IMG/VR virus record: IMGVR_UViG_3300033069_001798
Location: 1 to 64,000 of that record
Origin: a virus
Taxonomy: Duplodnaviria > Heunggongvirae > Uroviricota > Caudoviricetes
Direction: 5' to 3' (one strand)
Length of the DNA: 64,000 nt
In this document: one piece after another, positions 15,580-16,720 of the stretch
Position numbering within the stretch: position 1 is the first letter of the stretch
Layout of the letters: every line of letters begins with the position of its first letter
Program-made: the position numbers and the translations under genes
The notes under the pieces: model-generated
The model's input: the letters and a program-made list of their open reading frames with translations, nothing else
What the model was told of the DNA's origin: nothing
Databases searched by the model: none

Positions 15580-15852
15580 ATGGCGAGGGACCCGGTGTTT
15601 CATGTCGTGGCAAGCGGCTCATGGAACCTCGATGAATTCCTCCCAGGTGACGCGCTCGTTGCTTCTGGTTCCATCGCATGGGGCCTCAGAGACGTTGATG
15701 AAGACACTGTCCAAGTGATACTGACAGGTGCGCCATCGTTGATCGTAGCTCGAGACAAGAGCCCAATGTGGGGCGGCGGGTACCTTCATGCTATGATCAT
15801 ACTCTCGGCTGATTGCCAGATCTTGTTCATCATAAGGACTAGCATCGATTGA
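15580..15852 (+). CDS. GDLV-family-like protein (dispersed copy)
   Basis: 90 aa; ..DEFLPGDALVASGS..VILTGAP..HAMIILSADCQILFI. Confidence 0.55.
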   Translation: MARDPVFHVVASGSWNLDEFLPGDALVASGSIAWGLRDVDEDTVQVILTGAPSLIVARDKSPMWGGGYLHAMIILSADCQILFIIRTSID

Positions 15853-15867
15853 ACATTTGGCTCGTTG

Positions 15868-15877
15868 ATTGTACAAT
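15868..15877. promoter_or_regulatory. 10-bp palindrome ATTGTACAAT containing TACAAT, 3/6 nt upstream of ATG-ATG 15881/15884
   Basis: gATTGTACAATttgATGATG. An identical 10-mer occurs at 21849-21858 in front of ATG 21864. Confidence 0.4.
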
Positions 15878-15880
15878 TTG

Positions 15881-16348
15881 ATGATGGACCAGAAGAAGTC
15901 GATCGAAGAGTTTAAGCTGAGAGTCGGTGATCTCGTTGCTCTGAGCGGTCATGGGTTGAACAGCGGCGGCATCATCTACAGGATCGTAGAGGATCATCCG
16001 CCGGAGAAGCTCCAAGAACAGCCAAAAGACTCTCGGGGTCATTGGGGGTGGAGGCGCAGGAACATCAGCGCAAAGACTGGGAAGCCTGTCTCTTACGCGG
16101 CAGTCAACGGCTTTGTGTACATCGTTCCAGTCTTGAAGTTCGCTGAGTACCAGCCAAAGAACAGGCGAGGAAAGACGATCTCAACGCGGGGTCGTAAGCT
16201 CGTTGAGTATAGGCACGTTGAAACTCGTCTGCGCCGCGTTGACATTGTCGAGTTGGGTGTCTTCTACGCAAACTTCAAAGCGTTCGTGGAAAAAGAAGTG
16301 AAAAGATTGTCAGGAGAAGACGTTGACGAATCAGCCGTGGCAACATGA
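15881..16348 (+). CDS. Hypothetical protein with N-terminal GDLV-type module
   Basis: MMDQKKSIEEFKLRVGDLVALSGHG..GIIYRIV, then a basic ~100-aa tail. The track start is TTG 15869; ATG 15881/15884 is preferred. Confidence 0.55.
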   Translation: MMDQKKSIEEFKLRVGDLVALSGHGLNSGGIIYRIVEDHPPEKLQEQPKDSRGHWGWRRRNISAKTGKPVSYAAVNGFVYIVPVLKFAEYQPKNRRGKTISTRGRKLVEYRHVETRLRRVDIVELGVFYANFKAFVEKEVKRLSGEDVDESAVAT

Positions 16349-16511
16349 AGTAAAGTACCCGGCGGGAACGTTGCTGTACGATCACCTTGAGAAAGCGTGG
16401 TGCGTCATAATCTGCTGGATCCCTGACACTACAAGAGCGATCGTCTTGTCAGGGAAAGACCACCTTGAGAAGTGGTCGTACTACTACGTCTCCAAGAGCC
16501 ACATCACATGA
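16323..16511 (+). CDS. GDLV-family-like small protein (dispersed copy)
   Basis: 62 aa, TTG start; ..KYPAGTLLYDH..WCVIICWI..RAIVLSGKDHLEKW. Confidence 0.5.
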   Translation: MTNQPWQHEVKYPAGTLLYDHLEKAWCVIICWIPDTTRAIVLSGKDHLEKWSYYYVSKSHIT

Positions 16512-16720
16512 GCTCAAACTGCGAGAAAGGGTACTCTGTTGGTACGCTCGTGAAGCACGAGTACTACAGTGGCAGAATTTCAATCGGTATCGTCGTTGGA
16601 ATAGAACACTCTACAGAGGCAATATGGTCGCCGCGGTGGTACACGGTGTACATCGACGATGATTTTGATCGTTGGGGTGAGTGGTTCTTGCACAATCGGA
16701 TCGTAAACGTCGCCGTATAG
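16508..16720 (+). CDS. GDLV-family-like small protein (dispersed copy)
   Basis: ATG 16508 (ATGA overlap) inside track ORF 16472..16720; MSSNCEKGYSVGTLVKHE..ISIGIVVGIE..WYTVYIDDD. Confidence 0.55.
   Translation: MSSNCEKGYSVGTLVKHEYYSGRISIGIVVGIEHSTEAIWSPRWYTVYIDDDFDRWGEWFLHNRIVNVAV

Follow-up and report, generated by a model that had tools for sequence, protein, structure and literature searches.

Four small genes downstream of a phage MVP homologue are conserved but show no detectable membership of the adjacent GDLV array family

Downstream of a major vault protein (MVP) homologue in the window (the whole 64,000-nucleotide stretch of Caudoviricetes DNA analysed here) lie four co-oriented small genes, ORF1 to ORF4, which are genuine and show no detectable membership of the array of small GDLV-type paralogues in the same window. 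On the reading that we prefer, to which we would give a probability of about 0.6, ORF1 belongs to a family, X, that adjoins MVP in other lineages, ORF2 represents a second family of the MVP neighbourhood, ORF3 and ORF4 are ORFans, and kinship with the array is at most at the level of a superfamily. What the ORFs and the array would then have in common is a fold class and a first strand of the form Gly-Asp/Thr-Leu-Val. The map of the multigene family is corrected accordingly: the array does not simply run on past MVP, and the analysis gives no evidence that its module is fused to another protein. Considered by themselves, ORF1 to ORF4 are small phage proteins of an ordinary, unannotated kind.

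Genomic setting

The window appears to come from a large phage-like genome. A eukaryotic giant virus was also considered as the context, but the packing of the genes, the ATGA overlaps, the GIY-YIG endonucleases and the placement in IMG/VR fit a large phage. The array consists of about 44 small paralogous plus-strand genes between positions 35 and 12018, most of which start M-x-x-G-D-L-V, and is followed on the plus strand, in an operon-like run, by MVP, a 254-aa ORF (p254) and ORF1 to ORF4. The features of this region are as follows.

12034..14775, plus strand: MVP homologue, used as the context anchor (Pfam MVP_shoulder 2e-30, Vault_3, Vault, Band_7)
14791..15555, plus strand: p254, conserved gene directly downstream of MVP, no Pfam family
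15580..15852, plus strand: ORF1, 90 aa, acidic (pI 4.5), best read as a diverged member of the MVP-adjacent family X
15881..16348, plus strand: ORF2, 155 aa, pI 9.8, separate conserved family, single predicted SH3-like barrel
16323..16511, plus strand: ORF3, 62 aa, TTG start, lineage-restricted ORFan overlapping the end of ORF2 by 26 nt
16508..16720, plus strand: ORF4, 70 aa, lineage-restricted, with an ATGA start/stop overlap with ORF3
16714..17524, minus strand: GIY-YIG homing-endonuclease insertion (ORF 16611-17480; Pfam GIY-YIG 2.8e-14)

Other genes in the window encode a Cpn60 chaperonin, IF-1, thymidine kinase, RNA ligase, flap endonuclease, dCMP deaminase and two GIY-YIG endonucleases. 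The IF-1 homologue (20788-21297, minus strand; Pfam eIF-1a 1.3e-18) has an N-terminal extension, and the Cpn60-type chaperonin is found at 23535-25160 on the minus strand (Pfam 2e-64).

A megablast search of window positions 12000-21000 against GenBank phages gave no match. Close relatives are present in IMG/VR, namely L001, an 81.6-kb contig with an MVP that is 99% identical, and L002, with an MVP that is 64% identical; L003, from a Logan assembly, is a further relative, and 42 more loci came from an MVP-based metagenome scan with contigs of up to 369 kb. The related loci fetched with MVP numbered 44. MVPs have been reported in two gut Caudoviricetes (preprint 10.1101/2023.11.10.566534), and here likewise an MVP homologue is found in a phage-like genome. 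That preprint appears to deal with the phage MVPs themselves; the gene order MVP, p254, X, ORF2 family described below was worked out in the present analysis.

ORF1 to ORF4 are conserved genes

All four reading frames listed by an earlier, sequence-only reading of this DNA are present at the coordinates above, with the N-terminal peptides that it had quoted. L001 and L003 contain them in an unchanged order, and comparison with these contigs gives pN/pS values of 0.02-0.57, the mark of purifying selection (0.07-0.37 for ORF2, 0.21 for ORF3 and 0.26-0.57 for ORF4). For ORF1, 13 synonymous differences leave the protein unchanged in L001 and L003. Since they recur in two related contigs under purifying selection, ORF1 to ORF4 are genes.

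Some or all of the frames might instead be spurious, left open by chance in an intergenic or degenerating stretch beside an inserted homing endonuclease. There is no Shine-Dalgarno-like sequence upstream of any of the four starts, as spurious frames would predict, but the array genes and MVP likewise lack one; ORF3 has a TTG start, but in L003 the start at the same position is ATG. The overlap of about 110 nt between ORF4 and a convergent reading frame would also fit, though all four were predicted by the gene callers of the source databases and keep their frame in both L001 and L003, with synonymous change in excess. This explanation, rejected on the pN/pS values and largely refuted, is scarcely credible.

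Three of the ORFs share a first-strand motif with the array, but none of the four is recovered by its profiles

An array member is predicted by AlphaFold2 to form an SH3-like barrel, and in 37 of the 43 array members the first strand carries a motif of Gly followed by Asp, Thr, Ser or Glu and two aliphatic residues. Outside the array the pattern G[DTSE][LIMV][LVIM] occurs in six-frame ORFs at 0.00076 per residue, or about 0.023 per 30-aa window, and strict GDL[VLI] at about 0.0024 per 30-residue window. Close to the N-terminus ORF2 has GDLV, ORF3 GTLL and ORF4 GTLV, while the GDALV of ORF1 contains a one-residue insertion and does not fit the strict pattern. At so low a background rate, the motif near the N-terminus of three consecutive ORFs is not expected by chance.

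HMMs of the array were built with 33 members, with 44 after iteration, with 78 when related loci were included and with 124 from a dozen lineages. The 33-member HMM finds further array genes that had been left out of its build, and the profiles recover the weak in-array genes plus two members downstream of MVP; a third, weaker gene nearby is a probable member.

22718..22954, plus strand: true GDLV-family member downstream of MVP (array HMM E=1.3e-8)
22949..23143, minus strand: true GDLV-family member downstream of MVP (array HMM E=3.2e-10)
21864..22064, plus strand: probable weak GDLV-family member (HMM E=0.067; hhalign 77%, P=2e-5)

Against 1.84 billion representatives the array profile finds just 34 proteins at E<=0.001, and in Pfam, PHROGs and PDB sequence profiles nothing at or above threshold was found for the array family.

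Scoring with an HMM built from the array, the check that the sequence-only reading had itself proposed, left all four ORFs insignificant (E at least 0.98), even with the 124-member profile. Among the 826 ORFs of the window the 33-member HMM gave E=8.6 for ORF1, 3.3 for ORF2 and 2.1 for ORF4, with no hit for ORF3, and the 44-member HMM gave 0.98, 4.3, 4.4 and 1.4 for ORF1 to ORF4 in turn. With the 78-member HMM the values for the four ORFs were 12-19, and with the 124-member HMM they were 2.5 for ORF4 and 45 for ORF3, ORF1 and ORF2 being absent at E<=100. Pairwise phmmer searches of each of the four ORFs against the 826 window ORFs gave nothing below E=0.04, and nothing at or above threshold was found for them in Pfam or PHROGs. 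Of the proposal that all four carry the strand and hydrophobic core of the family, what holds is the motif in ORF2, ORF3 and ORF4; ORF1 lacks it in strict form, and the array HMMs are insignificant throughout. Family members do lie on either side of MVP, as had been proposed, but those on the downstream side are the genes at 22718-22954 and 22949-23143, 7-8 kb away, and not ORF1 to ORF4.

The array (35-12018, with 22718-23143) thus resembles ORF1, ORF3 and ORF4 in the small size of its genes and shares with the ORFs the strand, the tight or overlapping junctions, the G-D/T-L-V first strand and a hydrophobic pattern in b2 and b3, but differs in that the HMM scores of the ORFs are insignificant, ORF2 falls in another orthologous family and ORF3 is at background.

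Profile-profile comparisons

With hhalign, the single sequences gave the following scores against the array profile of the window.

ORF1: score 15.9, P 0.006
ORF2: score 19.7, P 0.002
ORF3: score 8.5, P 0.21
ORF4: score 17.3, P 0.002

Composition shuffles, 60 for each ORF, had mean scores of 8-9 and a maximum of 13. ORF1, ORF2 and ORF4 score above all 60 of their shuffles but ORF3 does not, with a shuffle mean of 8.0 and 20 of the 60 shuffles equal to it or higher. Weak in-array genes that had been kept out of the profile score 11-40, the weakest of them 11-20. A set of 14 other small window genes, presumed to be unrelated, scores 6.9-15.1; ten of these lie at 6.9-10.0, and the PG-family genes among them reach 15.1. 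The reversed ORF1 sequence still scores 13.6.

Two unrelated small-barrel families served as controls, the TVLWS-type genes of L002 and L047 and the PG family of the window. The latter comprises four small paralogous genes (70-96 aa) at 42212-43144 on the minus strand, which start x-P-G-[TM]-[LI]-[LVF], and is a separate family with an hhalign match to the array of 1.3%. The control families match the array at 0.4-17%, reaching 17% and 8.5% with the 124-member profile. Against this background ORF1 alone gives 6-9%, and ORF3 gives 0.3-2.4%, which is the level of its shuffles. ORF4 gives 54% with its orthologues against the window profile and 19% against the 124-member profile. The ORF2 family gives 19%, over just 13 columns around GDLV, and 47% with the 124-member profile. 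Compared with the TVLWS-type family, the PG family, the ORF2 family and each other, the ORFs give background values in hhalign. In view of the control-family scores, the likeness of ORF4, and of ORF1 alone, to the array looks to be of the generic kind seen among small P-G-D-x-V barrels. For ORF2 as for ORF4, kinship with the array is a weak possibility, at the level of fold or superfamily only.

The sequence-only reading took all four ORFs for diverged array paralogues, with ORF2 as the array module plus a basic C-terminal tail and the module as an autonomous unit. The improbability of the motif arising three times in consecutive ORFs speaks for this, as does the fact that the hhalign scores of ORF1, ORF2 and ORF4 exceed every shuffle and overlap those of the weakest in-array genes; yet every HMM test is insignificant, ORF3 does not rise above background, and ORF4 and ORF1 alone score like the two unrelated control families. 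The SH3-like fold predicted for both ORF2 and the array member, the 92% match of X with ORF1 to the broad array profile and the tandem GDLV-like modules of two large proteins, P0025 and P0041, would also be accommodated, but the ORF2 family forms a clearly distinct orthologous group in other lineages, and the supposed tail of ORF2 is made up of strands b3 to b5 and a conserved helix, its basic loops being missing from most homologues. We consider descent of all four from the array to be quite unlikely, and superfamily-level kinship at most remains the reading that we prefer.

ORF1 and the MVP-adjacent family X

A jackhmmer search with ORF1 in 45 related loci recovered only the copies in L001 and L003. 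Family X, whose members are located directly after MVP or p254, is represented by the following genes.

L002:12789-13079
L047:6972-7274
L044:15661-15969
L008:13420-13704
L009:7557-7850
L015:14499-14789

The X profile (A7) matches ORF1 in hhalign at 85% (P=6e-6), and the X HMM ranks ORF1 first among the 826 window ORFs with E=0.0017; the alignment is colinear, with 19-25% identity. The order MVP, p254, X, ORF2-family gene in L008 is the same as the order MVP, p254, ORF1, ORF2 in the window, and L009 agrees. ORF1 therefore has both the profile match and the position after MVP or p254 that characterise the family, with moderate statistical support; the hhalign match, the window-level E value and the synteny together make a diverged gene of family X its best reading. 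The sequence pattern and the alignments suggest that ORF1 would also adopt a barrel fold.

When X, with ORF1 included, is compared with the array, the match is 70% for the window profile and rises to 92% (P=8e-7) for the 124-member profile. As ORF1 matches X and X matches the array, ORF1 is, through X, probably a remote relative of the array family. It could be argued that these are unrelated small beta-rich proteins and that a Gly-Asp-Leu-Val first strand is simply a generic solution for an SH3-like barrel, which would be consistent with the P-G-D/T-x-V start of the TVLWS-type, PG, ORF2 and X families, with the twilight hhalign values of 8-17% that such families give against the broad profile and with the score of 13.6 for reversed ORF1. 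The match of X to the array is, however, well above the controls, and the location of the families in one conserved neighbourhood suggests that they duplicated locally and diverged. Convergence seems to us an unlikely account, if one to be kept in mind, and we continue with remote kinship as the preferred interpretation.

ORF2 is predicted to be a single SH3-like barrel of a distinct family

The first search with ORF2 found three homologues. With a profile that included the syntenic genes of other loci, the family (P0001-P0024) grew to 22 proteins with E values of 1e-10 to 1e-44. A typical homologue has about 115 aa and a pI of 5-6.3, and the conserved blocks of the family, GDLVxWxG, IIYxV, LRPAFD and ELRKLxLVDLGxxRLxFDNFIRE, span the whole protein, including the part of ORF2 that had been taken for a tail; ORF2 itself matches the family across GDLV..IYxV, LRPAFD and LRKLxLVDLGxxRLxFDNFIRE. 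Genes of the family lie within a few kb of MVP/Band_7 in L002 (two copies), L005/L006, L008 (two copies), L044, L046 and L047.

The AlphaFold2 model of ORF2, made with the alignment of its family (pLDDT 77), has strands at residues 18-21, 31-39, 78-86, 106-109 and 117-119 in the order of an SH3-like five-stranded barrel (b1, RT loop, b2, b3, b4, 3-10, b5), followed by a predicted C-terminal helix at 122-143 that is conserved. Lys/Arg-rich insertions form basic loops at residues 40-77 and 87-105; they are missing from most of the 22 homologues and are confined to this lineage plus a few relatives. An SH3-like fold is thus predicted for the array member and ORF2 alike, although ORF2, with 155 aa, two insertions and an extra helix, departs from the array pattern of a barrel-only chain of 55-100 aa. 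ORF1, ORF3 and ORF4 have an array-like single-domain size as judged by length only.

ORF2 is indeed basic (pI 9.8), but in the model the tail of about 100 residues proposed by the sequence-only reading contains three of the five strands, and the basic stretches are loops. Nor does ORF2 bear out the idea that the GDLV module occurs as the N-terminal domain of a larger protein: with its predicted strands spread over residues 18-119 and the conserved helix following them, it does not consist of a GDLV module with a basic tail attached, and is predicted to be a single-domain protein of a distinct family. GDLV-like barrels can serve as repeated modules elsewhere, of which ORF2 is no example. The proteins in question, P0025 (727 aa) and P0041 (1201 aa), have 5-6 tandem barrel-like repeats of the form F-K-x-G-D-[LM]-V-K and match the array profile.

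Searches of Pfam, PHROGs and PDB sequence profiles with the ORF2 family gave nothing at or above threshold, and a fold search of BFVD with the ORF2 model gave nothing at E<=0.001. The model falls in the same fold class as the SH3-like barrels of Tudor, KOW, chromo/PWWP, bacterial SH3b, NdhO/NdhS and R67 DHFR, but there is no sequence-level match to the SH3, Tudor or KOW families of Pfam, and ORF2 differs from them in its two long loop insertions and C-terminal helix. A weak structural resemblance of the model to the Tudor-like N-terminal domain of CarD/CdnL, the RID of Mfd and the C-terminal domain of UvrD/PcrA was also noted; neither ORF2 nor any of its 22 homologues has a Pfam hit at E<=0.1, to CarD_TRCF_RID or to any other model. 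SH3, Tudor and KOW barrels are generally small non-enzymatic binders. By analogy, ORF1 to ORF4 may bind host or phage macromolecules as small proteins without enzymatic activity, and the basic loops of ORF2, together with its weak likeness to RNA-polymerase-binding Tudor domains, would make nucleic acid or RNA polymerase its most likely partner.

The MVP neighbourhood in other lineages

A p254 homologue directly follows MVP in L001, L003, L007, L008, L009 and L014; in L002 it lies at another place on the contig. Diverged GDLV-type small genes cluster beside MVP in L008 (549-9383), L009, L015, L031 and L047 (10470-12320); the L008 cluster, upstream of MVP, contains 19 such genes, most of them in minus orientation. 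Since GDLV-type clusters adjoin MVP in other lineages, the association of array and MVP is older than this virus. Downstream of MVP, L002 (13079-16094) and L047 (7900-9234) have a tandem family of small genes with the pattern P-G-D-x-V ... T-V-L-W-S. These TVLWS-type genes take up the slot of ORF3 and ORF4, and it appears that different small barrel families occupy it in different lineages.

The conserved unannotated neighbours of MVP that large phage-like genomes carry, namely p254, X/ORF1 and the ORF2 family, are the first candidates for probing the role and partners of the phage vault protein. A more speculative thought, and something of a long shot, is that a conserved phage 'vault module' is made up of MVP, p254, X (ORF1) and the ORF2 family, in which the SH3-like proteins would act as accessory, adaptor or cargo-targeting partners of a vault-like shell and the arrays would be diversified offshoots of the X type. 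The arrays would in that case be, for example, a repertoire of binders of cargo or host targets.

ORF3, ORF4 and a homing-endonuclease insertion

Jackhmmer searches of the 45 related loci with ORF3 and with ORF4 found copies in L001 and L003 only, and a database search with ORF4 returned just two near-identical clusters. Past L001 and L003, homologues of either were found neither in the related loci nor in a collection of 5.8 billion proteins. From their sequences both can be read as strands b1 to b5 of a putative small barrel. With scores at background, ORF3 has no detectable relation to the array; for ORF4 the likeness is weak and at the level of the controls, and true remote homology is an open but weak possibility.

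Alignment by blastn shows that 811 bp of the window (16714-17524) replace 30 bp of L001, and the insertion is absent from both L001 and L003. It lies at the overlap of ORF4 with a convergent gene (17449-17856, minus strand), where the 3' ends of both genes have been clipped and given new C-termini. The last codons of ORF4 have been altered by the insertion, and its C-terminus accordingly differs from those in L001 and L003. The endonuclease ORF extends in frame into what was formerly the tail of the convergent gene, and the C-terminal tail of the endonuclease is that of the minus-strand gene in L001.

Relatedness over 14701-16713 is mosaic, with p254 closer to L003 (pS 0.10) than to L001 (pS 0.44), and ORF2 and ORF3 closer to L001 (pS 0-0.10) than to L003 (pS 0.42-0.57), which suggests recombination among co-circulating relatives. 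A second endonuclease, of the GIY-YIG/NUMOD3 type, is found at 36796-37479 (minus strand), where the flap-endonuclease gene (35648-36841) has its 5' end. Upstream of this endonuclease, a 62-aa ORF at 37480-37668 (minus strand) duplicates the N-terminus of the flap endonuclease with 56% identity, and the arrangement over 35648-37668 looks like an endonuclease insertion with a fragment of the target gene left over.
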